This document shows, one piece after another, positions 6,046-52,995 of a stretch of 54,655 bases of DNA. This stretch comes from Enterobacteria phage mEp021: sequence record MH706966; one strand, given 5' to 3'. The first letter of the stretch is position 1, and each line of letters starts with the position of its first letter. Under the pieces are notes generated by a model. It was not told the DNA's origin. It searched no databases and was given only the letters and a program-made list of their open reading frames with translations. The position numbers and the translations under genes are program-made.

Positions 6046-6079
6046 TATGTTATTACCTCCGGTTTACAAAATGGAAAAT

Positions 6080-6586
6080 TCAGGGTAAAGAAATACCGTG
6101 ATTGCTATGAAAGTTATACATTCTTTCAGCTTCTTTTCTTGCTTTTACGGCATCATCAAATGAGTCACCGTAATAAACGTACATTGTTTTCTTTTTCCCA
6201 TCAGACCCCCTTATACCTATTTGCGCCCGCCATTTATGGGTTTTCTTGTTCCACGTAACGCCAACGCATCCGCTAGTATTACTTGATGGCATTGTTTTGT
6301 TTCTGTTATTCTCCTTCCTTGTCACTATCCTTAAGTTTTCGATTCTATCGTCACCAGGTACATGATTTATGTGATCTATTTCCATTCCATCAGGAATAGG
6401 GCCGTTAAACATTTCCCAGATAATGCGGTGACGCCATGTGCAACAAATACCATTAACGCGTATAGTCCAATATCCGCGATAATGTTTACATCCAGCCACG
6501 CTACCTGCTTTTATTTTGTTATTTGCACGGTTACAAGACCAATATAGAACGCCGTCGCTATATGTAAATAAATCATCCCACATCAT
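6080..6586 (-). CDS. HNH homing endonuclease with AP2-type DNA-binding domain
   Basis: HNH_3-like EIDHINHVPGDDRIENLRIVTRKENNRN followed by the AP2-like SGCVGVTWNKKTHKWRAQI. The start was moved to the ATGATG at 6586/6583 so that only 14 nt overlap the upstream gene. Confidence 0.8.
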   Translation of the reverse strand: MMWDDLFTYSDGVLYWSCNRANNKIKAGSVAGCKHYRGYWTIRVNGICCTWRHRIIWEMFNGPIPDGMEIDHINHVPGDDRIENLRIVTRKENNRNKTMPSSNTSGCVGVTWNKKTHKWRAQIGIRGSDGKKKTMYVYYGDSFDDAVKARKEAERMYNFHSNHGISLP

Positions 6587-7703
6587 GACACCCAACCATT
6601 TCAGGCCTATATACAAAGCGACCAATTTCGCCATAATCAGGGCTGTAAATGATAACCGCCGCGCAACGTTGCGATCTCCAGCCTCCATTAGTTGAATAAG
6701 CGTCTTTTCCCGCTAACGTGCCGTGGTGTTCAACTATGCCTATAGATGATTCTGTTACTGATTTATGGTGCAAATGTCCGACATGGACGTAAACATATTT
6801 CGACTTGCCAAAATCCTCACGCCAGTCAGCTACGCAAGCAGACAATAAATTTTCAGGCTTTTTGATAGTGTGCCCGTGGTGGTAAGCAAGGAATGTTTTT
6901 CCGTACTGTGTGTGGTGGACGATGGCAGGGGACACATCAACCGTCACGCGCGGTTCATCTTCGTAAAAAGCCGCCAGCGCCGCACGTAGCCAGATCATTC
7001 CTGACTGGTCGTGATTGCCGGATAACACCTGGATTTCAACATCCTTATGATTTAATAACATCTTCCCTACCGCCCGCCGGACAGACCGGATCGCTACATA
7101 AACAAGTTTTGCGTAGCGACTATCTTGATCAAGAATGTGCCCGCTTGTTGGTGTCACCGGGACCATACCGTCAGAATGAAGTAGATCGCCACCGAGGAGC
7201 AGTACTGCTTTTTCAGACATAGGAGCAGCGCCAACCGCGTAGTCAAAGAAGTCATTCAACACGCGCTCAGCGATCCCAGTATCGTAGCTCTCACCGCATT
7301 CAGCTTTATGAGCAAGTGCCCCGATATGCAGGTCAAACACCGGATAAAGAGCCAGGCTTTTTTGAAAATCAATTTCCGGCACTGGCACTGCCTCCGCGCG
7401 TGGTATTTCTTCCGTGAATGCGTCGCGGGCGGCTTCCATTAGCCTTTCCATTTCATCGCGATCACGGGCTGTTTTAATCCAGCGCATGACCGTATTACCA
7501 GCCTTATCGACAAGAACAGATTCACCAGTAACGCCAAAACCCGGTGCGCGGCGCGTTGATAATAAACCGCGTTTCGCCAGCTTTGCGCCAAGCCGCTCGA
7601 CGTTGCGTTTTGACATGCCATATTTTTCGGCGATCTGTTTATACGTTAAACCGTTGTTATATTCAGCGATCAATTGCTCATCGCTTATCTTTCTTTGCGA
7701 CAT
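6573..7703 (-). CDS. N-terminal HTH fused to a calcineurin-like metallophosphoesterase (replication-module protein)
   Basis: 376 aa. HTH LTYKQIAEKYGMSKRNVERL, then phosphoesterase motifs DLHIG, GGDLLHSDG, GNHD, HHGH and GHLHH. Confidence 0.7.
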   Translation of the reverse strand: MSQRKISDEQLIAEYNNGLTYKQIAEKYGMSKRNVERLGAKLAKRGLLSTRRAPGFGVTGESVLVDKAGNTVMRWIKTARDRDEMERLMEAARDAFTEEIPRAEAVPVPEIDFQKSLALYPVFDLHIGALAHKAECGESYDTGIAERVLNDFFDYAVGAAPMSEKAVLLLGGDLLHSDGMVPVTPTSGHILDQDSRYAKLVYVAIRSVRRAVGKMLLNHKDVEIQVLSGNHDQSGMIWLRAALAAFYEDEPRVTVDVSPAIVHHTQYGKTFLAYHHGHTIKKPENLLSACVADWREDFGKSKYVYVHVGHLHHKSVTESSIGIVEHHGTLAGKDAYSTNGGWRSQRCAAVIIYSPDYGEIGRFVYRPEMVGCHDVG

Positions 7704-7736
7704 AATGTTACTTCCTCATGTTTACGTTTTGTATAT

Positions 7737-9224
7737 TCATTGGCAGAAAACAATCTCTTTAAATGCTTTTTCTACCATGTCGAATACTTCCGGCCTGTAA
7801 TAGAAAAACTCATTGCTTCCATCAAATTTCACAGGAAAATTGATTTTATAATTACTAAAAGCCTTATGCATCGTGTTTTCTAGTTTATGTATACTTTCGG
7901 TTGGCCCTTCTAACGTTTTCACGACACACAAATCAGGGATTCTAACACCTGCTTTATGTGCGCTTTTTAATATCCGATTTCTTCGCTCGTTCTCCTTAAC
8001 ACTTACGCCGATTTTCATTTGTGTAGGTAATTCCAGATCATCAACCATGATGTAAAGTTTGCCATAATCATAACGAAAGAAACCGTATTTAGCGCATTTT
8101 TGGCAACCCCTACCGCGCTTAAGTTCTCTAGGTCTAACCGACCACTTATGATTACAAACCTTACAGCGGCATGATACTTTTTTATTTACGTTCGTTATTT
8201 CTCCCAGCACTTCAACATCAGGATTAACCTTAGCAATAGCTAAAACATGTTCTTCGTGCGTTATAATCTTCCCAGCACATTTTGGGCAACCCTTCCCGCG
8301 TTTAAGGTTGCTAGGAGTAACCGACCACTTATGATTACAAACCTTACAGCGGCATGATACTTTTTTATCTACGTTCGTTATTTCTCCCAGCACTTCAACA
8401 TCAGGATTAACCTTAGCAATAGCTAAAACATGTTCTTCGTGCGTTATAATCTTCCCAGCACATTTTGGGCAACCCTTACCGCGCTTAAGGTGGTTAGGTC
8501 TAACTGACCATTCATGATCACAAACCTTGCAGCGGCATAATACTTTTTTGTCGCCACCTGTAATTTCACCCAGCACTTCAACATCAGGATTAACCTTCGC
8601 AATGGCAGCAATTTGTTTATAATGTGATAGTCTTAGTTTTTGTGCAATTTTCACACATTTACATTTCGGGCAACCGCTCCCGTGTTTAAGGGCGTCAGGC
8701 GTAGCCGACCATACACGATCACAAATCTTGCAGCGGCATAATACTTTTGTTCTGCTATTAACAATTTTCCCCAGCACTTCAACATCAGGATTAATTCTTG
8801 AGATGGCGGCGATCTGTTCTTCGTGTGATAATCTTTTTGGCCCTTGCTTTAACATTGCGCATTTCGGGCAACCATTCCCGCGTTTAAGGTTGCTAGGAGT
8901 AACCGACCACTCATGATCACAAACCTTGCAGCGGCATAATACTTTTGTGCTGTTATTTATTATTTCCCCCAACACTTCAACATCAGGATTAATTTTAGCA
9001 ATAGCCGCAATTTGTTCTTCGTGGGATAGCCTTGCGTTCCCAGCGCATTTTGGGCAACCTTTACCGTGTTTAAGGTTGCTAGGAGTAACCGACCATTCAT
9101 GATCACAAACCTTGCAGCGGCATAATACTTTTTCCCGGCTTCCAGTAATTTCTCCCATCACTTCAACATCAGGATTAACTTTCGCAATAGCTGCAACCTG
9201 TTCTTCGTGTGTTAGCTTGCACAT
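7737..9224 (-). CDS. Six tandem Zn-ribbon modules (CxxC...GCPKC) fused to a C-terminal T5orf172/GIY-YIG-like domain
   Basis: 495 aa. A module of about 61 aa, HEEQ(V/I)AAIAKVNPDVEVLGEI...KVLCRCKVCDHEWSV.P..LKRGKGCPKCAG, is repeated six times. The C-terminus GKLYIMVDD...MKIGVS...R..IL...H...F...KINFPVKFDGSNEFF resembles T5orf172. Confidence 0.8.
   Translation of the reverse strand: MCKLTHEEQVAAIAKVNPDVEVMGEITGSREKVLCRCKVCDHEWSVTPSNLKHGKGCPKCAGNARLSHEEQIAAIAKINPDVEVLGEIINNSTKVLCRCKVCDHEWSVTPSNLKRGNGCPKCAMLKQGPKRLSHEEQIAAISRINPDVEVLGKIVNSRTKVLCRCKICDRVWSATPDALKHGSGCPKCKCVKIAQKLRLSHYKQIAAIAKVNPDVEVLGEITGGDKKVLCRCKVCDHEWSVRPNHLKRGKGCPKCAGKIITHEEHVLAIAKVNPDVEVLGEITNVDKKVSCRCKVCNHKWSVTPSNLKRGKGCPKCAGKIITHEEHVLAIAKVNPDVEVLGEITNVNKKVSCRCKVCNHKWSVRPRELKRGRGCQKCAKYGFFRYDYGKLYIMVDDLELPTQMKIGVSVKENERRNRILKSAHKAGVRIPDLCVVKTLEGPTESIHKLENTMHKAFSNYKINFPVKFDGSNEFFYYRPEVFDMVEKAFKEIVFCQ
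8138..8503 (-). repeat. Near-perfect 183-bp (61-codon) tandem duplication inside the Zn-ribbon gene
   Basis: 8138-8293 repeats at 8321-8476 with about one mismatch. The rest of the gene (to about 9215) consists of diverged copies of the same unit. Confidence 0.85.
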
Positions 9225-9365
9225 CGTTTCAACTCCTTAAAACGCCTCAGACACTCTACAACGCAAAAACACACCGCGTAATCCACTTGTAATGGTGCAG
9301 TGTCTTTTTTGCGCCAGAATCGCAATCAGGTGGCTAATTTTTTGATTTACAGACTGGTATGAAGG

Positions 9366-9467
9366 TTATGGATTTACTAGAAGGAACAAGCCGCCGAACA
9401 AAGCGACGTTAACAGCGATTGCAGCGGCGATGGCAAAAGCCAGGGCGAAAACGTGTTTACCGTCCAT
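9366..9467 (-). CDS. Possible 33-aa hydrophobic peptide MDGKHVFALAFAIAAAIAVNVALFGGLFLLVNP
   Basis: Not in the track. GAGAGGA sits 7 nt upstream of the ATG, and the peptide has a single predicted TM helix. It lies in an otherwise empty 375-nt gap. Confidence 0.3.
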   Translation of the reverse strand: MDGKHVFALAFAIAAAIAVNVALFGGLFLLVNP

Positions 9468-9600
9468 TTTAAAATCCTCTCTAAAACGCTCTCTAACGAG
9501 CTAAACCGCTAAAGGTATGCAAGTGTAGCACCCAATGCTTTTTAGCTCGCTTATGGGCTTGTTTTGTTGGTAATTTTTGATTTTTGCGTATTGTGGTTGG

Positions 9601-10608
9601 TCAAATAGCGCCTGCGCGTGTATCGCGTAGCGTTTTTGGTTTAAGCAGGAAATCAAGTGTCGCAGTGAAGCCATTGCCGAAGTAAAAGTCTGAAGCCGTG
9701 TTTTTAAACGCCTCAAAGTAAGCAATAAAGCCAGTGATGCTTTTGTCTTTCAGGTAGTCAGTGAACGCATAGATCTTGCGTTCAAGATCCCGATCCAGTT
9801 CAGCAGGTGGCAACAGGCCATCAAACGTGCTGTTAAATGCTTCCACTACGTCGGCAGCGTTTGCAGTGACTGACAGTTTGCTCCATTGTTCAGCATCAGC
9901 CAGATACCCATCGAATTTAGTTACCCGGCAAATGTTAACAGGCTTAGGCACTCCACCACGGCCACGCCATTGCGTTAAAGCCCACTCAATCACTAATGTG
10001 ATCTCACCCTCCGTATACGCTTTGCGTGTTTTTGTTTCTGTCAGTAGTTCTACGAATGGCTTTGCATCACGACATTTGCATCCTGCCTTGTCGTTGTAGA
10101 AGGACAGGCAACGCAATGCCGCCAGATTAACCTCCCGATCTTCTTCGCTGATAGACTCGTCTTTTTCCAATACACGAAGTGTATTGTTTTTAATGTTCTC
10201 TTTACTGGTTATATATGACTGATTAGGGTTGCTCTCTGCCACTACCCCCGGTTGCTTTGTGCCACTACCCTGGTTGCTCTCTGCCACTACCCCCGGTTGC
10301 TTTGTGCCACTACCTGACAGTGAAGGTAAAACGATTACATAGAAATTGCTCGTTTGTTCTTTCCCTCCTATTAAATATCGAGGCTGTTTTAGTAATAAAC
10401 CTTTTTTGCAAAGAGCCTCGATTGCTCTCATTGCCGTACTTTTGTTTATTTCGCATTGCTTTGCTATGTGCTGGTAAGAAGGGTAGCACTCTCCGTTATC
10501 GTTAGCGTTATCAGCCAACTTTAACAGCACAAGTTTGTGCATTGGGTTGCCGACTTCAGTATGAAAGACTTCAACCATTAGCCGCATACTCATAAGCATT
10601 AACCTCAT
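9601..10608 (-). CDS. Replication initiator, lambda O-like (N-terminal winged HTH; start codon ambiguous, 10608-10578)
   Basis: The N-terminus KLVLLKLADNANDNGECYPSYQHIAKQCEINKSTAMRAIEALCKKGLL is typical of phage O/HTH_36 initiators. The gene contains iterons (peptide repeat SGSGTKQPGVVAESN twice), as lambda O does. Confidence 0.8.
   Translation of the reverse strand: MRLMLMSMRLMVEVFHTEVGNPMHKLVLLKLADNANDNGECYPSYQHIAKQCEINKSTAMRAIEALCKKGLLLKQPRYLIGGKEQTSNFYVIVLPSLSGSGTKQPGVVAESNQGSGTKQPGVVAESNPNQSYITSKENIKNNTLRVLEKDESISEEDREVNLAALRCLSFYNDKAGCKCRDAKPFVELLTETKTRKAYTEGEITLVIEWALTQWRGRGGVPKPVNICRVTKFDGYLADAEQWSKLSVTANAADVVEAFNSTFDGLLPPAELDRDLERKIYAFTDYLKDKSITGFIAYFEAFKNTASDFYFGNGFTATLDFLLKPKTLRDTRAGAI
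10168..10316 (-). repeat. Candidate origin of replication: four 22-23-bp iterons, an AT-rich stretch and a palindrome, inside the O-like gene
   Basis: Iterons GGTTGCT(C/T)T(CT/-)GTGCCACTACCC at 10228, 10250, 10272 and 10295. AT-rich segment at 10187-10227. Perfect palindrome CAATACAC-GAA-GTGTATTG at 10168-10186. Confidence 0.7.
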
Positions 10609-10614
10609 GACGAA

Positions 10615-10860
10615 CTAAAACATTAACTGATAAACACAGAAGAAGCCTGGAAGCTGGCTAATCAGGCCGCTTCTTTTCAGTTGATGCAGTGCAGAGATAG
10701 TGTCACGTAACGAAATTTCGCACATTTCCGCGATCTCTTCCGGAGTTACTTCGCTTTTGCCGTTGCATCCGGCCTTTGTTGCCAGTGCAATTAAGATAAG
10801 TTTTTGCACATGATCATTGTTATTCAGGCGAATATCAAAAGCCTTGCGAACGTAATACAT
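10615..10860 (-). CDS. Small winged-HTH protein, first gene of the minus-strand early operon (Cro/CII position)
   Basis: 81 aa with a strong RBS (AGGAGAAAGAAACATG). KLILIALATKAGCNGKSEVTPEEIAEMCEISLRDTISALHQLKRSGLI resembles the N-terminal domain of the O-like protein. Confidence 0.6.
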   Translation of the reverse strand: MYYVRKAFDIRLNNNDHVQKLILIALATKAGCNGKSEVTPEEIAEMCEISLRDTISALHQLKRSGLISQLPGFFCVYQLMF

Positions 10861-10968
10861 GTTTCTTTCTCCTATGGTTAGAGTGAACGCGCGGGCGGGT
10901 ATCCAATTAGCATTAGATAGCAGTGACTGACCGCTGAACAGATCCCGCCGTTGCGTGATATTTGTTTT

Positions 10969-11001
10969 TCGCTTCGCAGCGACACCGGATTTTTAAAGAG
11001 C
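10969..11001 (-). promoter_or_regulatory. nutR-like site (boxA AGCTCTTTAAAAA, 7-nt spacer, boxB hairpin UCGCUGCGAAGCGA)
   Basis: Read on the minus strand in the leader of the early operon. The boxA matches the rrn boxA TGCTCTTTAACAA at 11/13. The 17-mer GCTCTTTAAAAATCCGG is identical to 20172-20188. Confidence 0.4.
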
Positions 11002-11013
11002 TTTTAAGGTATG

Positions 11014-11129
11014 TACCTTTTGTGCTTTCCCTTATCTTTTTTCTTGCATCATTGCAACTATGGCCTTACCTTGTCAGCAAGTTTACAGAATGGAGCTTTA
11101 AGATCAAGGCTTGAAAAATACGTTTTGTG
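11014..11129. promoter_or_regulatory. Immunity-region operator cluster (three copies of the YACAAAAYGK word) between divergent early promoters
   Basis: TACCTTTTGTG at 11014-11024, TACAGAATGG at 11084-11093 and TACGTTTTGTG at 11119-11129, in the 306-nt gap between the cI-like gene and the divergent operon. Confidence 0.4.
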
Positions 11130-11166
11130 ACTTGCATCAAAATTTTTTAGGTTATAGGGTAGCGAT

Positions 11167-11814
11167 ATGAAAACAAAATGGTATGACTTAGCAAAACAAC
11201 TCATGCGGGCGCAGGGCATGAGCCAGGATTCATTGGCTGATCTTATGGGGATCACAAAAGGCGGCCTTTCTCACTGGCTGAACGGTAGACGTGAGCCAAA
11301 TCTTGAAGATATTGCGCGTATCATGCGGGCGCTTGGGCGTCGGCAGTTCACTGTCACACATGATGGAATGGTCATTGATGATTCTGTTTCTAACACGTTG
11401 CCGGGAGCGCCGCCGCGTGATTTAGGTAGTTACCCGGTTGTTGACTGGAAGGATGTAGTAAACAATATGGAAGATGCAAGGCGATCAACATTACCACACG
11501 TTACGACTAGCGTTATTTGTTCAGATGATAGTTATTGGCTGGTAGCTAAAGGCGAATCAATGAACGCGCCGCAAGGATTGAGTATACCAGCGGGGACGAT
11601 GATACTTGTCGATCCGCACGCGCCAGCTATTGACGGCAAACTGGTTATAGCCCAATTGGAGGAGGGGCAGGTACCGACGTTTAAACAGTTGATTATTGAT
11701 GGAGGTCAAAGACTTTTGCGTTCGCTCAATCCGCTGTATCCGCCAATCCCTATGAATCCAGAATCAAAAATTATAGGCGTGGTGGTTGATGCGAAGATCG
11801 TAAACCTGCCATAA
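11167..11814 (+). CDS. cI: CI-type prophage repressor (XRE HTH + S24/LexA-like autopeptidase)
   Basis: 215 aa. N-terminal HTH MSQDSLADLMGITKGGLSHWLNGRR and a C-terminal S24 domain with AKGESM...K. Divergent from the early operon. Confidence 0.9.
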   Translation: MKTKWYDLAKQLMRAQGMSQDSLADLMGITKGGLSHWLNGRREPNLEDIARIMRALGRRQFTVTHDGMVIDDSVSNTLPGAPPRDLGSYPVVDWKDVVNNMEDARRSTLPHVTTSVICSDDSYWLVAKGESMNAPQGLSIPAGTMILVDPHAPAIDGKLVIAQLEEGQVPTFKQLIIDGGQRLLRSLNPLYPPIPMNPESKIIGVVVDAKIVNLP

Positions 11815-11820
11815 ACATTA

Positions 11821-11844
11821 GCCGCCGGATGGCGGCTTTTCTTT
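11821..11844 (+). terminator. Rho-independent terminator after cI
   Basis: GCCGCC-GGAT-GGCGGC followed by TTTTCTTT. Confidence 0.7.
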
Positions 11845-11924
11845 GCCGTAAAAACACCAAAACGTAAACAGAAAACATGTTTTATCATTTAAATATCAAT
11901 GAGATAGAAAATTTTTTAAAAAAG

Positions 11925-11966
11925 TATACAAAATGGATTGACTCTGTATATCACGGGGCGTATATT
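11925..11966 (+). promoter_or_regulatory. pL-like promoter (TTGACT-17-TATATT) with an abutting TATACAAAATGGA word
   Basis: -35 at 11938-11943 and -10 at 11961-11966. The motif at 11925-11937 is directly upstream. The spacer contains ATATCACG, which also occurs in the other early leader. Confidence 0.5.
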
Positions 11967-12223
11967 GCGAATCAAAGGAAGGAGGCAGGAAACAAAAAAG
12001 CACCTTCCAGGCACTTTAAAAAATCAGGCTTAACACCTTGTCAACCGTGGAGTAACTCCCCGATGGGGGACCGAAAGCGGCACTGATAACAAGGCGCATG
12101 GGGTGTTTAAAGCGTTACACCCCCCACGAAACCGCACGCAAGGCGACGAGTCAGCTTGCTTGGAGTGAGCAAGGTCACACCGGAAACGGCGATGATTGCG
12201 GGATTAGTTGAAAGATGTTAAGC

Positions 12224-12261: not shown

Positions 12262-12317
12262 AATTAACGAAGATGATTTTTTATTAAGTATCATCAAGGA
12301 TATAAGGAGATCAGATC

Positions 12318-12608
12318 ATGACAGTTACAATCATGTATGGCAAATGTGACAGTAAACTGAATGCCAGGGAACGCAGAAGAATAAAAAGAGAAAACGAAAG
12401 AAAATCATCACCTGCAATTAATAAAACGGACAATGTGGATAAAGCCATTCGCTTTGCAAACGAGGAAAGATGCAAACCCAATGGCATTAAAGAACGTCGC
12501 AAAGGAGCGGTAAAATGGTATACGGAAAATGAAAGCGGCAACTACTACCACGCAACGCAACCACGCCAGTTAGGGGAAAAACCCCTTGATAAAGTCCGCT
12601 ACCATTAA
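12318..12608 (+). CDS. N: N-like transcription antiterminator (arginine-rich motif protein)
   Basis: 96 aa with the RBS AAGGAG. The N-terminal ARM SKLNARERRRIKRENERK resembles the lambda, P22 and phi21 N ARMs. It is the first gene after the pL-like promoter and the nut-like site. Confidence 0.55.
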   Translation: MTVTIMYGKCDSKLNARERRRIKRENERKSSPAINKTDNVDKAIRFANEERCKPNGIKERRKGAVKWYTENESGNYYHATQPRQLGEKPLDKVRYH

Positions 12609-12638
12609 TACAAAATGTAAATAATCGGAGGTGACATT

Positions 12639-12761
12639 ATGGTTATCGAGGCGCTCAAATTCAAACTTGCGGTAGCGGAAATGCTTCATGATGCCGAAAT
12701 GTGGAGCGCCGCGAATAAAGCCTTATACGTAGTGTTAACAGCGAAGGAGATCAAAGAGTGA
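12639..12761 (+). CDS. Hypothetical small protein (40 aa)
   Basis: Not in the track. RBS GGAGGTGACATTATG. Its stop overlaps the GTG start of the erf-like gene. Confidence 0.4.
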   Translation: MVIEALKFKLAVAEMLHDAEMWSAANKALYVVLTAKEIKE

Positions 12762-16515: not shown

Positions 16516-16525
16516 CATCGTGATT

Positions 16526-16561
16526 GCGATCACATAAATATACATTTTGTGTTGTGATCGC
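16526..16561. promoter_or_regulatory. 36-bp palindromic element GCGATCACA-N18-TGTGATCGC enclosing a TACATTTTGTG word
   Basis: Perfect 9-bp arms, each containing GATC. Lies in the 99-nt gap between 16515 and 16615. Confidence 0.4.
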
Positions 16562-16614
16562 ATATCCGTTTTGTAAACTGAAATCAAAAGGTTTACGGCA
16601 CGGAGGAAAACAAG

Positions 16615-17804: not shown

Positions 17805-18344
17805 ATGAAAAATGATTTTGGAGGCAGCCACACTCCTAAGGAAATTAAAGATCTATGGCAGACGCCTAAACCAGTTTTCAGAGGAATGGACCGCGAATTT
17901 GAATTTGTCGCTGACGTGGCGGCAAACAAGGAAAATGCGCTAGTTCCTCGGTATATAACCGAAGAAATGGACACGTTGCATTATCCGTGGGGAGCTGTGG
18001 CAATGCCTGGTGAGTATGTCTGGCTTAATCCGCCATATTCTAAACCGGGGCCATTCGTTGAGAAGGCGGCATTAGAACATCAACGAAATCACATTGGCTG
18101 TGTAATGCTGTTGCCCGCTGACATTTCTGTTAGCTGGTTTATGAACGGCGTGGATACGGCAAACGAATGCCGATTAATCACGCGCGGGCGGCTGGCGTTT
18201 ATCAATGCTGCGACTGGTAAGCCAGTAAGCGGAAACAATAAAGGGAGCTTGTTTTTGATCTGGCATCCACGGTGCAGACATGAATGTATTTTTACACACA
18301 TAACACGTAAAGAGCTATACGCAAGAGGTGCAGATAATGACTAG
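17805..18344 (+). CDS. Phage Dam-type DNA N6-adenine methyltransferase
   Basis: 179 aa. WQTPKPVF...FVADVAA...NALVPRY and the catalytic LNPPYS are characteristic of the small phage Dam family. Confidence 0.8.
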   Translation: MKNDFGGSHTPKEIKDLWQTPKPVFRGMDREFEFVADVAANKENALVPRYITEEMDTLHYPWGAVAMPGEYVWLNPPYSKPGPFVEKAALEHQRNHIGCVMLLPADISVSWFMNGVDTANECRLITRGRLAFINAATGKPVSGNNKGSLFLIWHPRCRHECIFTHITRKELYARGADND

Positions 18345-20073: not shown

Positions 20074-20128
20074 AATTTACAAAATGGCGTCATTGCGTGA
20101 TGTGGATCACATAATGGCGCTATTCACC

Positions 20129-20156
20129 TTGTTCTGATGTATCCATTTTGTATACT
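20129..20156 (+). promoter_or_regulatory. Candidate promoter (TTGTTC-16-TATACT) overlapping a CCATTTTGTATA word
   Basis: Read in the 159-nt gap after 20073. It would start transcription just upstream of the third nut-like site. Confidence 0.35.
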
Positions 20157-20170: not shown

Positions 20171-20204
20171 TGCTCTTTAAAAATCCGGCAGCGCTGAAAT
20201 GCGT
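20171..20204 (+). promoter_or_regulatory. Third nut-like site (boxA TGCTCTTTAAAAA, 7-nt spacer, boxB GCGCUGAAAUGCGU)
   Basis: boxA matches the rrn boxA at 12/13. The 17-mer GCTCTTTAAAAATCCGG is identical to the nutR-like site on the other strand. boxB shares the CGCUG..AA..GCG pattern. Confidence 0.45.
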
Positions 20205-20232
20205 AGAAATCACCTGAAAAGGAGAGAGCATT

Positions 20233-21433: not shown

Positions 21434-21612
21434 AAAACGAAATTAAAGATCTGCAAATAGATATTCAGCGCGACGAGCTTGATTTAGCTACAGTCAGGCA
21501 AATCCAGGCTTTCCACATGAGAGAATTGCTTGCGCTGAAAGAGCTTGAAAGAAAGTTGGTCCAGTCAATATCTGATCGCAAAAGACTGGTTGCGCGTTAC
21601 GGGGGTAAATAA
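21430..21612 (+). CDS. Hypothetical coiled-coil protein (60 aa)
   Basis: Coupled ORF between rusA and Q. Confidence 0.45.
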   Translation: MKNEIKDLQIDIQRDELDLATVRQIQAFHMRELLALKELERKLVQSISDRKRLVARYGGK

Positions 21613-22334
21613 TGAATTTGGAATCTATTCTTAAATTCCATTTCCCAAAGTCACCGCGTTTGTCAGATGAAAGCCGTGGAACATCACCTGATGCACTTAA
21701 TACTACTGATGCACTAACCGCCGCAGGTATGGCGCAATCTCGCGTAGAGCTTGGATATAGCGCTTTTTTAGGGAAGATGGAACTATCACAAGCCGAAAAA
21801 CATAAGGCCGTAGTTTTGCTTATAGAGCGTTTAAAGGCTATGGCAAAAGATTATAAATACGTTATGGAACTGGACGAGGCACAACGCAATGATCTCATTA
21901 TTCTTGTTGCCGTTTTTGCGTTTCGGGATTATTGCCAGAGTGCCGCGACGGAAAAAACTTGCATGGAGTGCGGCGGATATAAATTTACGTTTGACGAATA
22001 CGGTGAAAAACACCTTTGTAAAAAATGCAAGGGGCATGGGACAGTTCGCAATCATTGTAAACAATGCAAGGGCCGTGGCGAAGTACCGGACAAAGCAGCC
22101 AGCGAAGCGACGGAAATGCCAGTATTCAAAACGTGCCAGCATTGCGGCGGGCGCGGTTACTCGCGTTTCCCAGTAGATCTTGTTCGGCAGGCGGTTAATC
22201 AGCTTGTTTTCCCTGTAAGCCGATCAACATGGTGGAAGAAATACAGGGTTTTCTATGAAGACGCCATAGTGGAGCTATTCAAAGAAGAATCTCGCGCGGA
22301 AAGCGAAATCAAACGAGTGACACGGGGTGAATAA
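21612..22334 (+). CDS. Q: Late-gene antiterminator Q (Zn-finger type, phage 82/21-like)
   Basis: 240 aa immediately after rusA. DnaJ-like CxxCxGxG repeats (CKKCKGHG, CKQCKGRG, CQHCGGRG), as in one Q family. Confidence 0.65.
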   Translation: MNLESILKFHFPKSPRLSDESRGTSPDALNTTDALTAAGMAQSRVELGYSAFLGKMELSQAEKHKAVVLLIERLKAMAKDYKYVMELDEAQRNDLIILVAVFAFRDYCQSAATEKTCMECGGYKFTFDEYGEKHLCKKCKGHGTVRNHCKQCKGRGEVPDKAASEATEMPVFKTCQHCGGRGYSRFPVDLVRQAVNQLVFPVSRSTWWKKYRVFYEDAIVELFKEESRAESEIKRVTRGE

Positions 22335-34006: not shown

Positions 34007-34024
34007 GTATGTGGAGCAAACAAA

Positions 34025-37569: not shown

Positions 37570-37725
37570 TTTCTTATCCTCTTTGCTTCCTCCGGTTAAT
37601 CCGACCTTCTAAATCCCTTTACTCTATCCCTTTCCTTTAGCCTCTTTATACAAAATGTATTCGTTGAAGTGAAGCCATTTTGTATAAAATAGAGATCAGT
37701 ATCACACTTTTTACGAGGTTAAATC

Positions 37726-40126: not shown

Positions 40127-41461
40127 TTACGCGGCTTTTATAATTTCTTTATACTTATCTTCCACCATGTTAAAAACCTCTGGTCTGTAGTAGAAAAATT
40201 CGCAACTACCATCAAATTTTACTGGGAAGTTAATTTTGTAATTATTAAGGGTTTTGTGTATCGCGCCTTCTAGTTCATAGATATTTTGTGTCGGACCTTC
40301 TAATGTTTTTACGATATGCAAATCAGGAATCGTTACACCCGCTTTATGTGCGCTACTTAGTATTCTATTTCTTCGTTCGTTTTCCTTAACACTTACCCCT
40401 ACTTTCATTAGCGTTGGTACTTCCAGATCGTCAACCATGATATAAAGTTTGCCGCGTTCGTAGGATAAAAAACCCTTTTTAGCACATTTAGAACAGCCGC
40501 TACCTTCCTTAAGTTTTTGCGGCGTGGTTCGCCACTTATAACCACACACTTTACATAAACACGATACTTTGTTTTTATTCCCTGTTATTTTACCTACCAC
40601 TTTGATATTAGGGTTGATGTTGGCAATGGCTTTTACTTGCTCATCATGTGATATTCTTCGTGCTTGCGATCCTTTTCGTTTCGCACACTTCGGGCAACCA
40701 GTACCTTTTTTAAGGCTGGCTGGAGTAGTTAACCACTCATGACTGCAAGACTTACAGCGGCATAACGTTCTCGTAGTATTGTTAATAATTTTTTCTAATA
40801 CCTCAACGCTAGGACTGGTTTTCGCAATAACTGCAATTTGTTCTTCATGTGATAGTTTGGTGTGTCCGCTACATTTCGGGCAGCCAGTACCATGCTTGAT
40901 GTTGTTGGGAGTTGCTGGCCATTCATGATTGCAAATCTTACATTTGCATAATACTTTTTTTAAACTCGCAGATTAAAAGGGGTTTTATTCAATATTGCTG
41001 TTAACCTTCGCAATAGCTGCAACTTGTTCTTCATGCGTTAATCTTCTATCTGCGCATTTTGGGCAACCTTGCCCGATTTTAAGTGTTTCAGGTCTAGCCA
41101 ACCATTCATGATCACAAACTTTGCAATGGCATAATACCTTTGTTTTATTATTAATAATTACCCCTAACACCTTAATATCAGGATTAACTTTAGCAATAAT
41201 TGCAACCTGTTCTTCGTGTGGTAATGCCCGTTTTTGTGCTCTTTTTAACGCCGCACATTTAGGGCAACCAACACCGCGCTTAAGATCAGCAGGTCTACCA
41301 AACCATTCGTGATTACAAGTTTTGCAGCAGCATGATACTTTTTCCATATTCCCGGTAATTACCCCTATCACCTCGATATTGGGGTTAACTTTTGCAATAG
41401 CGGCAACTTGTTCTTCGTGTGTTAATTTTTTTGTCATAATACCGCTCCTACAATCTTCCAT
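40127..41461 (-). pseudogene. Second Zn-ribbon-array/T5orf172 paralogue (five modules), interrupted by two in-frame TAA codons
   Basis: One 445-codon frame. The track ORFs 40985-41461 and 40127-40600 are its two ends. Stops are at 40985-40987 and 40973-40975, and there is no start codon for the 120 codons in between. Confidence 0.65.
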
Positions 41462-41547
41462 TCCGTCCTACATAACTCCTGCCGAACATTACCAACCAGA
41501 TGCTCCAGATCTCCCGCCATGTGTATTTCTCATTCTTCATACCCGCC

Positions 41548-41802
41548 TCACTTATGAGCGCCTTTTACGCCACATAACTTGTTATAAAAATGGTGCTCAA
41601 CGATTAACCAAACCCTCAGATCTTCACTGAACAGCCGCCAATCAGGATTAATGTCAAACTTCCAGCCATAACCATCGCGTAACTTTTTGGGGTTGGCCTC
41701 TTTCTTCAGGAAAGCATTTAATAAGGCTTTTCCCTTTTTGATGATCCGGTCCTGTGCGTTTTTCTGTGCTTTCAGGTTTTTACCAATCGCCACCAATTTC
41801 AT
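41548..41802 (-). CDS. Basic 84-aa protein (weak RelE/ParE-like look)
   Basis: Trimmed to the ATG with RBS GGGGTGG. ...KKLRDGYGWKFDINPDWRLFSEDLRVWLIVEHH. Confidence 0.5.
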   Translation of the reverse strand: MKLVAIGKNLKAQKNAQDRIIKKGKALLNAFLKKEANPKKLRDGYGWKFDINPDWRLFSEDLRVWLIVEHHFYNKLCGVKGAHK

Positions 41803-42042: not shown

Positions 42043-42071
42043 GTGAAGCCATTTTGTAAACTGGGTATAAT
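42043..42071 (+). promoter_or_regulatory. Candidate restart promoter for gpM (TATAAT at 42066-42071) overlapping GCCATTTTGTAAA
   Basis: Consensus -10 hexamer but a poor -35 (GTGAAG). The motif copy lies in the spacer. Confidence 0.3.
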
Positions 42072-42146
42072 TCTTGTGACGAAGTTCTCATTTTTCGCGT
42101 AGAAGCGCGTAAAGATGTATGCAATATGTAACTTATAGGGGGAATC

Positions 42147-43906: not shown

Positions 43907-43987
43907 CGCACACCTCCGCGCCATTTTGTTAACCCTGCTTCCTTTTGAGTACAATATACATATTGTAAAAAGCGCTATCAACCGTTT

Positions 43988-43996
43988 TGGTATGAT
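43988..43996 (+). promoter_or_regulatory. Extended -10 element TGGTATGAT upstream of gpL
   Basis: Fits the TGnTATnAT pattern, fused to a CCGTTTTGG word. Confidence 0.3.
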
Positions 43997-44033
43997 TTAG
44001 CGTGACGTAGATCACAAATTGCAAGGTGATAAA

Positions 44034-45945: not shown

Positions 45946-45957
45946 TAGGGGGTTACA

Positions 45958-49500: not shown

Positions 49501-51700
49501 GGCAACGGCTGAATCACTGGAAACCATCACGGCAGAAATGAACACGATGGATTCTAACCTTAAAGGTCAGATCTCAAGCGTGGAACGCGCAGTGGCTGAC
49601 GAGGCCAGCGCACGCGCAGAAGCCATTAACGGTGTGAACGCATCAATAAGCAATCTAGACAAGAAAACAGACGCCAGCATCAATAGACTTGATCAAGCTA
49701 TTGCAGACGAAACGAACGCCCGCACACAGGCAGTCAGTGACGTTAACGCGAGTATCTCATCGCTAGACAAGAAAACTGACGCCAGCGTTAAACGCTTGGA
49801 TCAAGCAATTGCAGACGAAACCAGTGCAAGAACTGAAGCTATCAGCGGCGTGAACGCATCAATTTCCACTCTTGATAGCAAGGTAACAAGCAATGTAACG
49901 CGCATAGATAAAGCTATTGCAGACGAAACGAAGGCACGCACTGACGCAATCAGCGGCGTTAATGCAAGTATTAGCACACTCGAAGGCAACACCAATTCAG
50001 AAGTGAAACGCCTTGATCAAGCAATAGCTGACGAGACTAGTGCCCGCACACAGGCTATCAGCGGTGTAAATGCTTCGATAAGCAATCTTGAAAGCAAAAC
50101 TGACGCGAGCGTTTCCCGTCTTGATAAAGCAATATCAGATGAAACGCAGGCAAGAAGTGCCGCAATAACAGAGGTTAAAGCTGATTTGTCAACGCTCGAA
50201 AATAGCACAAACGCCAGCGTTAAACGCCTTGATCAGGCGATTGCCGACGAATCAAGCGCACGCGCTGAAGCAATATCGGGCATCAACGCAGAGATTGGCA
50301 ACATTGAAAATAATGTTGACAAAAACAGCGATGATATAAATCAGACAAAAGCAAGCCTGCAAAACGCGTCTATCGCGCTTATTAACAACTCAATCGCTCA
50401 AACAAACACGCGTGTTACGCTTACGGCCCAATACAAGAAAGGCCGCAAAGAAACCAACGCGCAAATTGACCGTATTGACAATGTTATCGCTGAAGAGAAA
50501 AAGGCTACAGCGGAAGCGGTTAGCGTGGTAAAAGCATCGATCACGGATCTTGATAAGAAGACTGACGCGAGTGTTTCCCGTCTCGACAAGGCTATCGCAG
50601 ACGAAACAAGCGCACGCAGCGAGGCTATTAGCGGAGTAAATGCCTCAGTGTCAGCGCTAGACAAGAAAACGGATTCAAACATAAGCCGTCTTGATAAAGC
50701 CATTGCAGATGAGACAAGCGCAAGAACTGAAGCTATCAGTGGAGTGAATGCAAGTATTATCACTCTTGAAAGCAACACTGAATCTGAAGTTGGCAGGCTG
50801 GATCAGGCAATTGCCGACGAATCAAGTGCCCGCGCCCAGGCTATAAGCGGAGTGAACGCATCAATTTCCACTCTTGATAGTAAGGTGACAAGTAACGTAA
50901 CCCGTATTGATAAGGCTATTGCAGACGAAACGAAGGCACGCACTGACGCGATAAGTAGCCTTAATTCATCGCTTACCAGTACGATTAATTCGAAAGTGTC
51001 TGAAGTATCAACGGCACTTTCTACGCATGAAGCATCAAGCGCTGAAAAATTTAGCCAGATCTCTGCGTCTTTCGAATCTGTAAACTCAAGTATTACAGAA
51101 TGGTCACAATCTATGGCAACGGCTGACGAGGCATTGTCAACCAAAATTGATCAGTTAACAGTAACCGTTAACGGTAACAAAACGGCGATCGAGACGACAT
51201 CGAATGCGCTAACCGATTTCAAGGGTAACGTTGATGCGTCATATTCAATCAAGCTCGCCACCGATAACAACGGCATGAAGTACGCGACAGGTATGTCGCT
51301 TGGCCTGACTGGTAACGGCACAAACTTTCAATCGCAGTGTATTTTCCTCGTTGACCGCTTCGTGTTAATGACCTCAGCAAACGGCACATATACAACACCT
51401 TTCTATGTCACCAATGGTGCGATGTATGTGAAAGAAGCGTTTATTAAAGACGGATCGATCGATACTGCAAAAATAGCGCAGCAAATCCAGTCAACTGTAT
51501 TTGTTCAAGACTCAAAAGGTTGGATGATTAACAAAGATGGATGGGCGCAATTCAACGAAGTTACTGTAAGGGGTAACGTCATTGTTAAAGGCAATCAAAA
51601 TTTCGATGTACGCAATAGTGACGGACGGGTAATTATTAACAATAATGGCATTACAGTAAATCTTCCTAGTGGTGGTAAAATTATTATCGGTGTTTGGTAA
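46517..51700 (+). CDS. Central tail fibre / host specificity protein J, greatly extended by a coiled-coil repeat region
   Basis: 1727 aa. The N-terminal part of about 800 aa is J-like, including FN3-like segments. It is followed by heptad-like and 36-aa repeats and then a C-terminal beta-rich tip. Confidence 0.9.
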   Translation: MSSGGGKAKTPTLLNDNLFHKQFYRVLDILSEGPIFGVVNQTAPLNSVMLNDTPITDASGNTSVPGVSLAWRNGTADQSPINGFNAIESTVIVNAKVTHDTPIIRTISDPNVNRVRLNLGVDSLVRSDDKGNQYNTSVMLMVDVKPSSSSTWSLVKDITIGPGKQSGEYLEAHIINAPDEKPFDIRVRRVTPDSTGDLLHNDTRWSSYSEIIDDNLSYPHTAVAGAVIDHDQYTDTPTRTYHLRGLIVDVPDNYDPETRTYSGLWLGGFKKAYTNNPAWLFRYLVKNERFGLARHAGYIDVDDGALYTLSQYCDQLVSDGYGGFEPRMTLNAYITEQMSARDLLDNIAGMFRGIALWDGQRLTVMIDAPQDPIATITNANVVDGAFTRSSIARAESYNAVIVSWTDPENGWEQSKEYVADDELIARDGYNETTLEAFGCTSRGQAYRAGKWLIETAKREPSKFTFKMARDAIHFTPGDIIEILDNNRAGARLGGRIVANSGKVITVDKVDSEYIAAGDTISLLDSDGKFKKHQITGVNGNNITLATAPAWIRNGTVFAVSTEAAKPVLCRIISVAETENNSVYTIEAAQHDPHKQAVVDEGAIFEVNNDTLNHFRVPNIENLKVLNVGSETVQCRATWETQTTTHRLTFEIRVYNAEGRVVAAYETTNYRYDFYGLDAGSYTLGIRGRNDTGMKGAESIVDLVIGAPAAPIGVNWVPGVFQATVYPISKTTLTTDTAYEFYFSGENQITDPSKVTTLAQFTGRGYQWTFGGMNTGHTYYVYVRTRNAFGVSDFVESSGKPTENFDEISDYVTKDVINSEQFKGMISDIKDLGDRADLIESATNDLKTATDNLKTATDNLTNITDDLMVDTDNLTNITDELRTDTDGLITETGAIKADTDTLKKQTEDLYKKVGENADDIGQHEARIDSLEVSSEKVGSELAQAKASLQNASLALINNSLAQTNTRVTLTAQYKKGRTETKAEIDRIDNVIAEEKKATAESLETITAEMNTMDSNLKGQISSVERAVADEASARAEAINGVNASISNLDKKTDASINRLDQAIADETNARTQAVSDVNASISSLDKKTDASVKRLDQAIADETSARTEAISGVNASISTLDSKVTSNVTRIDKAIADETKARTDAISGVNASISTLEGNTNSEVKRLDQAIADETSARTQAISGVNASISNLESKTDASVSRLDKAISDETQARSAAITEVKADLSTLENSTNASVKRLDQAIADESSARAEAISGINAEIGNIENNVDKNSDDINQTKASLQNASIALINNSIAQTNTRVTLTAQYKKGRKETNAQIDRIDNVIAEEKKATAEAVSVVKASITDLDKKTDASVSRLDKAIADETSARSEAISGVNASVSALDKKTDSNISRLDKAIADETSARTEAISGVNASIITLESNTESEVGRLDQAIADESSARAQAISGVNASISTLDSKVTSNVTRIDKAIADETKARTDAISSLNSSLTSTINSKVSEVSTALSTHEASSAEKFSQISASFESVNSSITEWSQSMATADEALSTKIDQLTVTVNGNKTAIETTSNALTDFKGNVDASYSIKLATDNNGMKYATGMSLGLTGNGTNFQSQCIFLVDRFVLMTSANGTYTTPFYVTNGAMYVKEAFIKDGSIDTAKIAQQIQSTVFVQDSKGWMINKDGWAQFNEVTVRGNVIVKGNQNFDVRNSDGRVIINNNGITVNLPSGGKIIIGVW
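49580..50990 (+). repeat. About 11 copies of a 108-bp (36-aa) coding repeat, organised as a roughly 1002-bp tandem duplication
   Basis: Unit LDQAIADETSARTEAISGVNASIS.LD.KT.A.V.R. Blocks at 49345-49515 and 49800-49975 recur at +1002 bp with about 85-90% identity by eye. Confidence 0.85.
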
Positions 51701-51740
51701 CCACTGTTGCCCCGCCAAATGGTTGGGGCAACTAATTTTA

Positions 51741-52676
51741 TTAATAAATTACTGGCAAATAAGGAAGATTCATACCTATACAGAAATCCGGCCTGTTACC
51801 TATTTCATACCTGACAATCCTTGATCCTGTTCCGCTTTTCACCTGCCCGTTGTACATCATAATGCCTTTGTATCTTAGTTCCTTGTATGCTGATATAGCT
51901 CTAGTATTAAAGCCGCATCTCAATATTGGGAAGAACGCGTCACCTATTGTCTGGTAACTATTCGATAACGCTATAAATCCCTTAACAACCAATGGCCTTT
52001 GTTTTGTTGAAAACACGCATTGATTATTTTTATTAATGATGGTTATTCCGTCGCCAGGTGATGGCGGTGATTTGCTAAAAATAGCCAAATTCATCGTTAC
52101 CGATCCATATGTGTCACCAGTTGCAGAAGTGTTTGTGTTTGTACAGATCAATTTATTGTTTCCGTCAAACTCAACTGAAACACCGCTATTGCTCCAGTTA
52201 CCGAAAGGAACACCGGCAACTGGCATAGTGTAAGAACCATTAAAGCTAACACTCCCAACCCATAAACATGACATCAATGTATCGTTAGTCGTTATCGATG
52301 CAAAATCTGTGCTATCTGCAACTAATATACCCTCACCAGTAGACGCCTTTGCTATCTCAAACACGCTACCGCTAAAATTAGTGATCCTATCAGAATATGC
52401 GTTCTCACCACTAATTGAAATCCTTGCCGTGCCACCAGAAGCACTAAAGCCTGATATAAAATATGTTTCAACACCCCTGTCAAGCTCAAACGCGTAAGCG
52501 CCTACCTTTGGGATTAGAAACTTATCGCCGCCAGTTAAATCCTTTATGGAAAAACTTTGCGAAAACCCAGCATTTTGAATATTGAAATCTCCAGCGTGTG
52601 AGAACGCACGCAACCCGCTTGTTATTTCCATTGCAGGGCGTCCGTCATTCAGCCCAATATATATACCCGCCCCCAT
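51741..52676 (-). CDS. Beta-rich 311-aa protein of unknown function
   Basis: Trimmed to the ATG overlapping the lipoprotein stop (TAATG). Ser/Gly/Thr/Asn-rich with no signal peptide seen. Confidence 0.6.
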   Translation of the reverse strand: MGAGIYIGLNDGRPAMEITSGLRAFSHAGDFNIQNAGFSQSFSIKDLTGGDKFLIPKVGAYAFELDRGVETYFISGFSASGGTARISISGENAYSDRITNFSGSVFEIAKASTGEGILVADSTDFASITTNDTLMSCLWVGSVSFNGSYTMPVAGVPFGNWSNSGVSVEFDGNNKLICTNTNTSATGDTYGSVTMNLAIFSKSPPSPGDGITIINKNNQCVFSTKQRPLVVKGFIALSNSYQTIGDAFFPILRCGFNTRAISAYKELRYKGIMMYNGQVKSGTGSRIVRYEIGNRPDFCIGMNLPYLPVIY

Positions 52677-52894
52677 TAGTACCACTCCTTACTTCCGCAA
52701 TCTCTAGTCTTGCCACTATGACCATCAGTGCCATCATAAACGCGACAGATCTCACCGGACGGAACCTTAGCCCCGTCAACCCATCTTTCATAGCAGACAC
52801 CGTATGCGCTAGTTGCACAATGGCCGTTGTGTCGATTAGTGTCAGCGCAACCAACCAGAATAGCCGCAACAGCGATAATTGTTACCATTTTCAT
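52676..52894 (-). CDS. Small Cys-rich lipoprotein (72 aa), Cor/Llp-like position
   Basis: MKMVTIIAVAAILVGC lipobox, RBS GGGGTG, and six further Cys in the mature part. Confidence 0.65.
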   Translation of the reverse strand: MKMVTIIAVAAILVGCADTNRHNGHCATSAYGVCYERWVDGAKVPSGEICRVYDGTDGHSGKTRDCGSKEWY

Positions 52895-52986
52895 TAGTAC
52901 ACCCCACTCAGATTGTGTGTATTTGTTGCTTTGTTTATTATAATATACATTTTGTATAAGCATAAAATGCAACATAGATCACAAAA

Positions 52987-52995
52987 TGGTAGAAT
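52987..52995 (+). promoter_or_regulatory. Extended -10 element TGGTAGAAT upstream of the side tail fibre gene
   Basis: Fused to a CACAAAATGG word. The ATG is 34 nt downstream and has a GGAG RBS. Confidence 0.35.

Follow-up and report, generated by a model that had tools for sequence, protein, structure and literature searches.

A dispersed intergenic word of phage mEp021 as the probable operator of its lambda-CI-type repressor

Introduction

Enterobacteria phage mEp021 belongs to the mEp021 or 'mEpimmI' group, which consists of Nus-dependent non-lambdoid coliphages (PMC11893012) that were described recently and are prevalent in the gut. We analysed the 54,655-nt stretch of sequence record MH706966 (hereafter the window), a member of this group whose early region is 98.8% identical to Escherichia phage mEp515. 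It opens with the first base of the mEp515 record and includes 1,450 bp that match a deposited mEp021 fragment at 100% identity. The subject is a short word with the core YACAAAAYGK, which recurs between the genes of the window, and its relation to the 215-aa prophage repressor Rep021. Rep021 confers immunity against every member tested, and the 48 phages of the group, placed in 9 proposed genera, share one repressor, at 96% identity, and belong to one immunity group (PMC11893012). Three nut sites have been described for the mEp021 group; concerning the Rep021 operator, the group paper says merely that a difference from that of lambda is expected (PMC11893012).

Materials and methods

The related loci comprised 44 immunity-region and 31 tail-region loci (about 75) that were fetched from the same phage group and are 80-90% identical overall. 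The specificity set consisted of 802 kb from 49 other phages with gpM 67-71% identical and homologous tail genes. The outgroup set consisted of 12 prophages or phages beyond the mEpimmI-like lineage with a repressor of the Rep021 family, namely L048, L130-L137, phage L, VT2-Sakai and ENT1; the hosts or sources were phage L, Shiga-toxin (Stx) phages, Enterobacter, Citrobacter, Serratia, Tatumella, Shewanella and Vibrio. Gene boundaries and the intergenic fraction were taken from a strand-block gene map of the window. Copies were scored with a 13-nt matrix, WW-YACAAAAYG-K-A, and the promoters are consensus predictions throughout.

Genes and copies of the word at the immunity region

The repressor gene and the copies around it are as follows.

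11014-11026, minus strand: weak copy AGCACAAAAGGTA, score 11.8, conservation 0.87, 12 nt upstream of the nutL boxA on the minus strand
11082-11094, plus strand: copy TTTACAGAATGGA in the divergent region between the repressor and the leftward operon, conservation 0.95 (45 loci)
11119-11131, minus strand: copy GTCACAAAACGTA, conservation 0.92, layout as in the sister contig L129
11167-11814, plus strand: gene of the Rep021-type repressor, 215 aa, with Pfam HTH_3 and Peptidase_S24 domains, the inferred reader of the word
11170-11182, plus strand: operator-like sequence AAAACAAAATGGT in repressor codons 2-5 (MKTKW), score 13.4
11925-11937, plus strand: copy TATACAAAATGGA, score 19.8, conservation 0.99 compared with 0.87 in the flanks

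The solved structure nearest to the repressor is that of lambda CI (3BDN, E=3.6e-19). As an earlier note on this DNA had stated, three copies (11014, 11082 and 11119) lie between the repressor gene and the divergent operon, and one copy (11925) abuts the -35 of the pL-like promoter. The 11082 copy directly adjoins the predicted leftward -35 (CTGACA, 11077-72); under an alternative prediction, TTGATC-16-TAAACT, it overlaps the -10 (TAAACT, 11087-82) and would cover the leftward promoter. The centre of the 11119 copy lies at about -42 from the predicted promoter of a leaderless repressor transcript (TTGCAT 11132, TATAGG 11153, ATG 11167). This is predicted to be an activating position like that of OR2, from which lambda CI activates PRM. 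The 11925 copy abuts the -35 of the predicted N-operon promoter (TTGACT 11938, 17-nt spacer, TATATT 11961) in a position like that of lambda OL, and a long A/T tract lies upstream of it. Pairs analogous to this copy were found in L130, L131, L134 (25 bp apart) and phage L. At the best-scoring predicted early promoters, the copies abut the -35 rather than cover the core. The operator-like sequence at 11170 is doubtful and may be a coding coincidence alone (a synonymous position differs in L048).

No Cro-type helix-turn-helix (HTH) gene was found beside the operators in the window (10615-10860 on the minus strand, and 10861-11166) or in its group, and the search for a Cro-type gene adjoining the dispersed early sites found none. 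An HTH_3 Cro-like gene is present at the corresponding position in the sister contig L129 and in all classical relatives. The first gene of the leftward operon (81 aa) encodes a protein that the earlier note called a winged HTH and named as an alternative binder; this product resembles the N-terminal winged HTH of replication initiators, not Cro, and a full-length initiator is encoded next to it. The repressor gene is the only DNA-binding gene that constantly accompanies the word. Furthermore, the dispersed copies match the matrix as well as or better than those of the immunity region (16-20 versus 11.8-16.6); therefore, a protein that binds the latter should also bind the former.

Enrichment, placement and conservation of the word

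The exact 8-mer ACAAAATG/CATTTTGT occurs 17 times in the window, compared with 4.36 copies expected from dinucleotide shuffles, and none of 100 shuffles reached 17. The chance expectation of 1.7 given previously was thus too low, the shuffled value being about 4.4. The degenerate core YACAAAAYGK occurs 15 times (1.63 expected). With the matrix, 14 sites scored 16 or higher, where 0.46 were expected and 100 randomisations gave at most 3; at a score of 14 or higher there were 18 sites, with 1.1 expected. All 14 strong sites (score at least 16) fall between genes. In an unbiased test that makes no use of the sites first listed, ACAAAATG ranked first among all 8-mers for intergenic bias, with 13 of its 17 copies in the 7.9% of the sequence that is intergenic (p=7.6e-12). 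Equal frequency inside coding sequence, which the earlier note had set against its own proposal, was not what we found; the copies are strongly biased to the intergenic regions.

The sequences described earlier were present at all 21 coordinates, and the inverted arms at 37648-60 (ATACA/TGTAT) and 52944-58 (TATACA/TGTATA) were as claimed. The count of at least 13 exact intergenic 8-mers held in part: about 11 are cleanly intergenic, and the rest have a start-codon or coding context. The copies at 34020, 43736 and 43922 are start-codon contexts in which a Shine-Dalgarno sequence (SD) is followed by AAAATGG, those at 2379 and 30126 are coding, and that at 11173 lies within repressor codons 2-5. 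The listed sites at 11014, 43982 and 44013 are present but weak, with matrix scores of 8.5-11.8. Sites at 2376-88, 6041-53, 42118-30, 43955-69 and 53007-19 were absent from the first list.

Altogether there are 14 strong copies and about 25 overall, spread over 2.4-53.0 kb of the window. Relative to transcription, the clear sites show no orientation bias (about 8 forward and about 8 reverse). Sites were found at all five divergent gene junctions of the window and at none of the five convergent ones, in keeping with the earlier description of the word as a mark of transcription restart points. The per-position conservation of the sites in the related loci was 0.84-1.00, for several of them above the level of the flanks. 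Strong sites have a density of 2.5-3.8 per 10 kb in mEpimmI loci, and none was found in the 802 kb of the specificity set. Moreover, relatives within the mEpimmI group carry extra copies in non-homologous contexts. A literature search for the word itself returned nothing but unrelated primers.

The repressor family and covariation of the word with the recognition helix

The database search revealed a large repressor family with the helix TKGAVSHWLNGRREP. The outgroup repressors are 36-51% identical to Rep021 over their full length where measured, and 45-57% identical in the N-terminal head for phage L, VT2-Sakai and ENT1; in this head, phage L c2 is 54% and Stx-phage cI about 45% identical. 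A search of genome contigs with the repressor alignment gave no match, and a second scan of viral contigs gave no new loci.

Wherever the gap between cro and the repressor gene was readable, including L129-L132, L134, L135, phage L and ENT1, it carried triple copies of the word. Phage L c2 and Sakai-type Stx-phage cI are family members with the same triple word. In the Enterobacter, Citrobacter, Serratia and Tatumella relatives and two uncultured contigs (41-56% identity), three TATAC-N5-GTAT copies lie in the cro-repressor gap, and mostly one or two more lie at the N-type operon promoter downstream of the repressor. The repressor-proximal copy in the outgroups lies over a TATAAT, TATGAT or TAATAAT -10. 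The L048 repressor is 36% identical overall, its N-terminal arm is identical (MKTKWYDLAK) and its recognition helix is similar; L048 has the classical layout of cro/CII and repressor, with four copies in the 110-bp gap, TTTACAAAATAAGTA, TATACATAAAGTAGA, TATACATTTTGTCTG and TATACATAACGTATA, the last of which is a perfect palindrome over the -10 of the leaderless repressor promoter.

The operator word was found to covary with the recognition helix, four helix variants going with four word variants. The helix TKGAVSHW goes with TATACA..GTAT, the Shewanella helix TPGGMGHW with TGTACA..GT, the V. alginolyticus helix SQSGIAHWLGGN with TATTACA..GGAATA, and the V. parahaemolyticus helix AQGTIARYLNDR with TATACC..GGATAT.

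Classical relatives carry the word in the immunity region only; within 10 kb on either side, L131 and L132 have nothing else, and ENT1, a complete 48-kb Enterobacter phage genome, has three copies at OR, one OL-like copy and none elsewhere. The sister contig L129, whose repressor is 56% identical, has the same genome architecture as the window and a scattered word.

Because three copies stand between repressor and cro across the family and the word varies with the recognition helix, we regard it as probably the operator of Rep021, the lambda-CI-type repressor that the phage itself encodes, distributed over the whole genome. This was the first proposal of the earlier note, and the copies at N-operon promoters also support it. 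Computation shows that the word is enriched, conserved and distinctively placed, that it occurs together with the repressor family and that it covaries with the helix; that Rep021 physically binds it, in which direction each site is regulated and whether any copy acts as a roadblock are inferred.

A separate observation concerns the cI gene of VT2-Sakai (L139, NC_000902.1 11409-11595), which has an in-frame stop within the HTH (LGMT*GGIGHW) and is annotated as two fragments; the operator-like words in its cI-cro gap are intact.

Form of the full site

Since the copies of the word in the distant repressor relatives have this form, the full site is a 15-bp dyad; the word makes up half to the whole of the pseudo-palindrome TATAC-N5-GTATA (TATAC-AAAAT-GTATA in the window). 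A symmetric operator of 15 bp is the experimentally established format of the repressor of 933W, another lambdoid phage (PMC3317979). Most copies have one good half (TATAC, TTTAC or ATCAC) and an A-rich centre. Perfect dyads in the window are those at 52944-58 and, with 5-nt arms, 37648-60. As noted before, several copies are fused to -10-like hexamers: many run directly into TGGTAGAAT, TGGTATGAT, TATACT or TAAACT, and the repressor promoters of relatives share this design (AACGTATAAT, TTCGTATGAT).

An operator copy, an SD and a start word form a cassette of about 35 nt, TATACAAAATGTAAAC-N-GAGG-N-AACATTATG, which precedes unrelated early genes in the relatives. A second intergenic-biased word, ACATAATG/CATTATGT, has 5 of its 6 copies between genes (among its positions are 6041-6053, 7695-7703, 12632-12642 and 53007-53019); it lies over or beside start codons, 22-29 bp from a strong operator copy.

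The sequence GATCACA directly precedes or contains five operator copies (16527-16562; also 20105, 44010 and 52977), at 16.5 kb as part of a larger palindrome, GCGATCACA...TGTGATCGC, and the window encodes a Dam methylase.

17805-18344: Dam methylase gene

Adenine methylation by the phage's own Dam might modulate binding at the adjacent predicted operators.

Dispersed copies in the early region

The copies outside the immunity region in the early part of the window, together with the integrase gene, are listed below.

186-1400: integrase gene
2376-2388, plus strand: copy TATACAAAATGCC, score 15.2, in 14 loci, within a small minus-strand gene, 13 nt from its start
6041-6053: weak second copy over a start codon
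6063-6075, plus strand: strongest copy, TTTACAAAATGGA, score 20.2, conservation 0.99 compared with 0.65 in the flanks (42 loci)
7723-7735, minus strand: copy TATACAAAACGTA in a 33-bp co-directional gap, part of the cassette of motif, SD and AACATTATG
12607-12619, plus strand: copy AATACAAAATGTA, score 18.3, in 42 loci, conservation 0.98
16541-16553 and 16565-16577, minus strand: pair 24 bp apart in the gap 16516-16614, conservation 0.91 and 0.98
20076-20088 (plus), 20106-20118 (plus) and 20142-20154 (minus): three-copy cluster, conservation 0.98-1.00

Single copies lie upstream of the SD in 30-34-bp gaps before the helicase gene, a 376-aa gene and the gene after gp17. The 6063 copy occupies the 34-bp gap between the HNH endonuclease and helicase genes (both minus strand), just upstream of the helicase SD; the 12607 copy follows the stop codon of gp17, an N-like gene, directly and precedes the next SD. 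The cassette of the 7723 copy fronts non-homologous genes in the relatives. Only the copies at 6063, 7723, 12607 and 2376 have no promoter-like context, and the 2376 copy is possibly functional.

The 16541/16565 pair overlaps a candidate promoter, TTGTGA-16-TAAACT, and its first copy lies inside a larger palindrome, GCGATCACA...TGTGATCGC. The three-copy cluster lies directly upstream of nutR2 (boxA 20174-90, boxB about 20206-17), and its third copy ends in TATACT, a candidate -10. A 16-mer, AGTATACAAAATGGAT, is common to this cluster and the 11925 site. Moreover, nutR2 (20174-20222) and nutL (11010-10994, minus strand) have an identical 17-nt boxA region, GCTCTTTAAAAATCCGG, with an operator copy 12-17 nt upstream of each. 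Operator and nut site may form a duplicated cassette, or the operator may act as a roadblock right before the antitermination site.

Dispersed copies in the tail region and among the late genes

The copies in the tail region and the late antiterminator gene are as follows.

21612-22334: Q-type late antiterminator gene (PF03589)
37647-37659 and 37674-37686: inverted pair 27 bp apart, conservation 0.89 and 0.98 compared with 0.74 and 0.82 in the flanks
42048-42060, minus strand: copy TTTACAAAATGGC upstream of gpM, conservation 0.96 compared with 0.84 in the flanks
42118-42130: degenerate second copy TATGCAATATGTA, perfect in 19 relatives
43955-43969: palindromic copy TACAATATGTATATTGTA over the leftward -10
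43981-43993: copy that abuts the leftward -35 (TTGATA) and overlaps the rightward TGGTATGAT
44011-44023: copy ATCACAAATTGCA at the gpL junction
52944-52958: perfect palindrome TATACATTTTGTATA, adjoining the leftward TATAAT (52942-37)
52978-52990: copy ATCACAAAATGGT, fused to the extended -10 TGGTAGAAT
53007-53019: weak copy at the fibre-gene junction

The 37647-37686 pair, whose 37647 copy is near-palindromic, occupies the junction from which a reverse-strand cluster and the tape-measure gene diverge. The 42048 copy lies within the spacer of a predicted promoter, GTGAAG(42043)-17-TATAAT(42066); in the relatives, GTGAAG and TATAAT of the gpM promoter are kept and the spacer is variable. The divergent junction upstream of gpL (43955-44023) carries weaker copies with a conservation of 0.86-0.91, and that upstream of the fibre gene carries three copies (52944-53019). 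Among the products of the reverse-strand clusters next to the late sites are two HNH endonucleases and a membrane protein classified as a moron; the others are proteins of unknown function. In the predicted 5' leader of gpM, between the 42048 and 42118 copies, we also observed a small conserved hairpin (TTCGCG TAGAAG CGCGTAA, 42085-42110).

No operator copy was found in the gaps downstream of the Q-type gene, 22.3-23.6 kb, where the late promoter is expected. Since a Q-type antiterminator is present, the restart promoters would not be strictly needed for late expression, and their predicted control by the repressor is therefore the more noteworthy.

Proposed mechanism

We propose that in the lysogen Rep021 dimers would occupy all sites and silence every sigma-70 promoter except the repressor's own, which the 11119 copy (about -42) would be placed to activate. 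The other copies would shut the leftward replication operon, the N operon and a second early-right promoter at nutR2. Those of the tail region would shut the promoters at every divergent junction, where the tail genes resume next to a reverse-strand accessory cluster, and the few copies in tiny gaps inside both early operons may act as roadblocks. SOS-triggered self-cleavage of the S24 repressor would free all sites together.

It is also conceivable, although we hold this extended reading only tentatively and think it rather doubtful, that the mEpimmI lambda-CI-type repressor is a whole-genome silencer of every transcription-unit start, and a roadblock upstream of nut sites and early-gene ribosome-binding sites, that works without a Cro partner. 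With about 14-25 operators over 50 kb, the immunity module could then no longer be swapped as a cassette, which would explain the one repressor and the one immunity group.

Several points weigh against reading the word as the Rep021 operator. The matrix comes from the sites that the earlier note had listed, although the exact-word and k-mer tests do not depend on it. The sole good copy at the N-operon promoter abuts the -35, with its centre at about -42, and does not lie over the core, which is odd for simple repression. Most of the dispersed copies combine a single good half-site with an asymmetric A4 centre that is strongly conserved, an unusual design for the operator of a dimeric HTH protein. 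The spacing within pairs is irregular (22-37 bp), so that cooperative pairing is not obvious, and three or four copies lie in 30-34-bp gaps without promoter-like sequence.

Alternative explanations

The sites might be read mainly by another phage protein, a Cro analogue or a lytic regulator, with the repressor acting on the immunity-region copies only. A Cro-type HTH gene always flanks the triple site in the relatives, lambda Cro and CI have operators in common, and several small early proteins of the window are without family assignment. However, no Cro-type gene stands at that position in the window or its group, where the 81-aa gene is initiator-like; the word covaries with the repressor helix, and the dispersed copies are nearer to the consensus than those of the immunity region. 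We therefore consider such a main reader unlikely. A second phage protein may share the sites with the repressor. A promoter element (UP-like, -35-like, or for a phage-specific factor), the second proposal of the earlier note, has a slim chance. Three predicted early promoters and the leftward 43981 promoter have a copy directly against their -35, copies also occur fused to -10-like hexamers, and 11925 has its A/T tract upstream; yet, measured from the predicted starts, copies of both orientations are centred anywhere between about -83 and +22, which is not the constant position of a promoter element. Besides, three copies lie in 30-34-bp gaps, too small for a promoter, and in the relatives the word takes textbook operator positions, including one over the repressor's own -10.

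The third earlier proposal was that the word, with the cassette of about 35 nt (motif, SD and AACATTATG), is a junction that guides module exchange or moron insertion by recombination. Breakpoints were not enriched at motif-bearing gene boundaries, with a mean of 6.4 high-scoring segment pair ends per boundary compared with 5.0 at the others (Mann-Whitney p=0.26, 76 related loci), and the convergent ends of inserted clusters carry no copy. This makes a recombination junction very unlikely, even though the cassette fronts non-homologous genes with at least four different upstream flanks and homology with the relatives breaks near the 6065, 37650 and 52950 sites; the recurrence of the cassette at junctions could be a by-product of shared operators. 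Action in RNA, as a hairpin masking the SD or start codon or as a protein site on mRNA, would fit the start regions AACATTATG and ACATAATGG, which are near-complementary to the word, and the strong folding of the 37640-95 pair (z=-6.0). It is nevertheless extremely improbable, since folding at the cassette sites was no stronger than in shuffled sequence (z=+0.04 to +0.76), the orientation relative to transcription is evenly divided (about 8 forward, about 8 reverse) and many copies lie upstream of any predicted start. We give as little credence to a host-factor site (OmpR-, integration host factor (IHF)- or CpxR-like): the absence of strong sites from the 802 kb of other enterobacterial phages and the change of the word with the phage repressor helix across hosts outweigh a loose likeness to OmpR half-sites (TTTACA) and CpxR GTAAA boxes. 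The consensus sequences of OmpR, CpxR, PhoP, IHF, CRP, LexA and NtrC were compared, and none fits the full length of the word.

Comparison with known systems

As an operator, the predicted word belongs to the lambda-type CI/S24 class, within the phage L/Sakai-type immunity family. As in lambda-type systems, the repressor has an HTH and an S24 domain with lambda CI as its nearest structure, three pseudo-palindromic copies lie by the repressor gene with at least one more at the N-operon promoter, and one window copy is centred at about -42 from the predicted repressor promoter. Words of the type ATACA-N-GTA are common to the window and the phage L c2/VT2-Sakai-type cI family. In that family, however, the word stands at OR and OL only, whereas mEpimmI has it in at least 14 strong copies that extend over 50 kb and into the tail gene cluster. 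Unlike the classical members, mEpimmI has no Cro-type gene beside the operators, and its repressor is co-directional with the N operon.

The genome-wide set would work like the dispersed C1 operators of P1 and partly like the stoperators of L5, without the asymmetry, orientation and repressor type that define these two systems. Some P1 operators are single and others paired. As in the window, one prophage repressor serves many scattered operators in P1, 22 in number (PMC8546580). P1 differs in being a plasmid prophage, in its asymmetric 17-mer operator (ATTGCTCTAATAAATTT) and in its repressor family; C1 is not S24 self-cleaving and is inactivated by the antirepressor Coi (PMC8546580). The earlier note had likened the word to the L5 stoperators. 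L5 and Bxb1 have 20-30 repressor sites genome-wide, many of them in short intergenic gaps (PMC6550527), and the copies at 6063, 7723 and 12607 are placed in this manner. Stoperators have no dyad symmetry, are oriented with transcription, lie mostly off promoters and are bound by a monomeric two-domain repressor without cooperativity (PMC6550527, PMC9283540). The window word, in contrast, is a pseudo-palindrome without orientation bias, most copies of which lie on promoter-like sequence, and it goes with a CI-type repressor. The analogy thus holds for genome-wide dispersal, and fails for asymmetry, orientation and a monomeric L5-type repressor.

The SAS/ESAS of cluster K mycobacteriophages are conserved short words just upstream of the SD or start of some genes, sometimes with an inverted repeat. 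Their placement resembles that of the cassette of motif, SD and AACATTATG in the window; unlike the window word, they have a fixed orientation, include the ribosome-binding site and have no link to repressor operators.

If the assignment is true, it would provide the first concrete operator for Rep021, and this operator type would also be predicted for the broad repressor family of which phage L and the Sakai-type Shiga-toxin phages are members. A dimeric, SOS-cleavable CI repressor may then control many loci beyond the immunity region, a layout known for P1 and L5 with quite different repressors. The accessory clusters of the tail region (HNH endonucleases, membrane protein) are predicted to be repressor-controlled and not constitutive morons. 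The single immunity type of the mEpimmI group contrasts with the many immunity types of lambdoid phages.

Repeats inside genes

Other top over-represented words, TTAATCCTGATG, CACGAAGAAC and CAGACGAAAC, proved unrelated to the operator word, being parts of tandem repeats inside genes. At 8091-9214, inside a 495-aa gene (ORF 7737-9224, minus strand), a 183-bp unit recurs about 5.9 times; the gene product combines five DUF4379 zinc-ribbon/CapR repeats with a C-terminus that is T5orf172/MUG113 nuclease-like. This unit is the source of the most over-represented 9- and 10-mers of the window, TTAATCCTGATG and CACGAAGAAC, and partial copies of these words lie in the HNH endonuclease cluster at 41177-41641. 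A 23-bp unit, GGTTGCTCTCTGCCACTACCCCC, is repeated about 3.9 times at 10227-10314, inside the 335-aa HTH_36/DnaD_N replication initiator gene (9601-10608); these repeats look like origin iterons, by analogy with the lambda origin within gene O. The J (host specificity) gene contains a 108-bp repeat and the recurring word CAGACGAAAC (49655-49857 and 49704-50922), in agreement with the C-terminal repeats mentioned for the group (PMC11893012).

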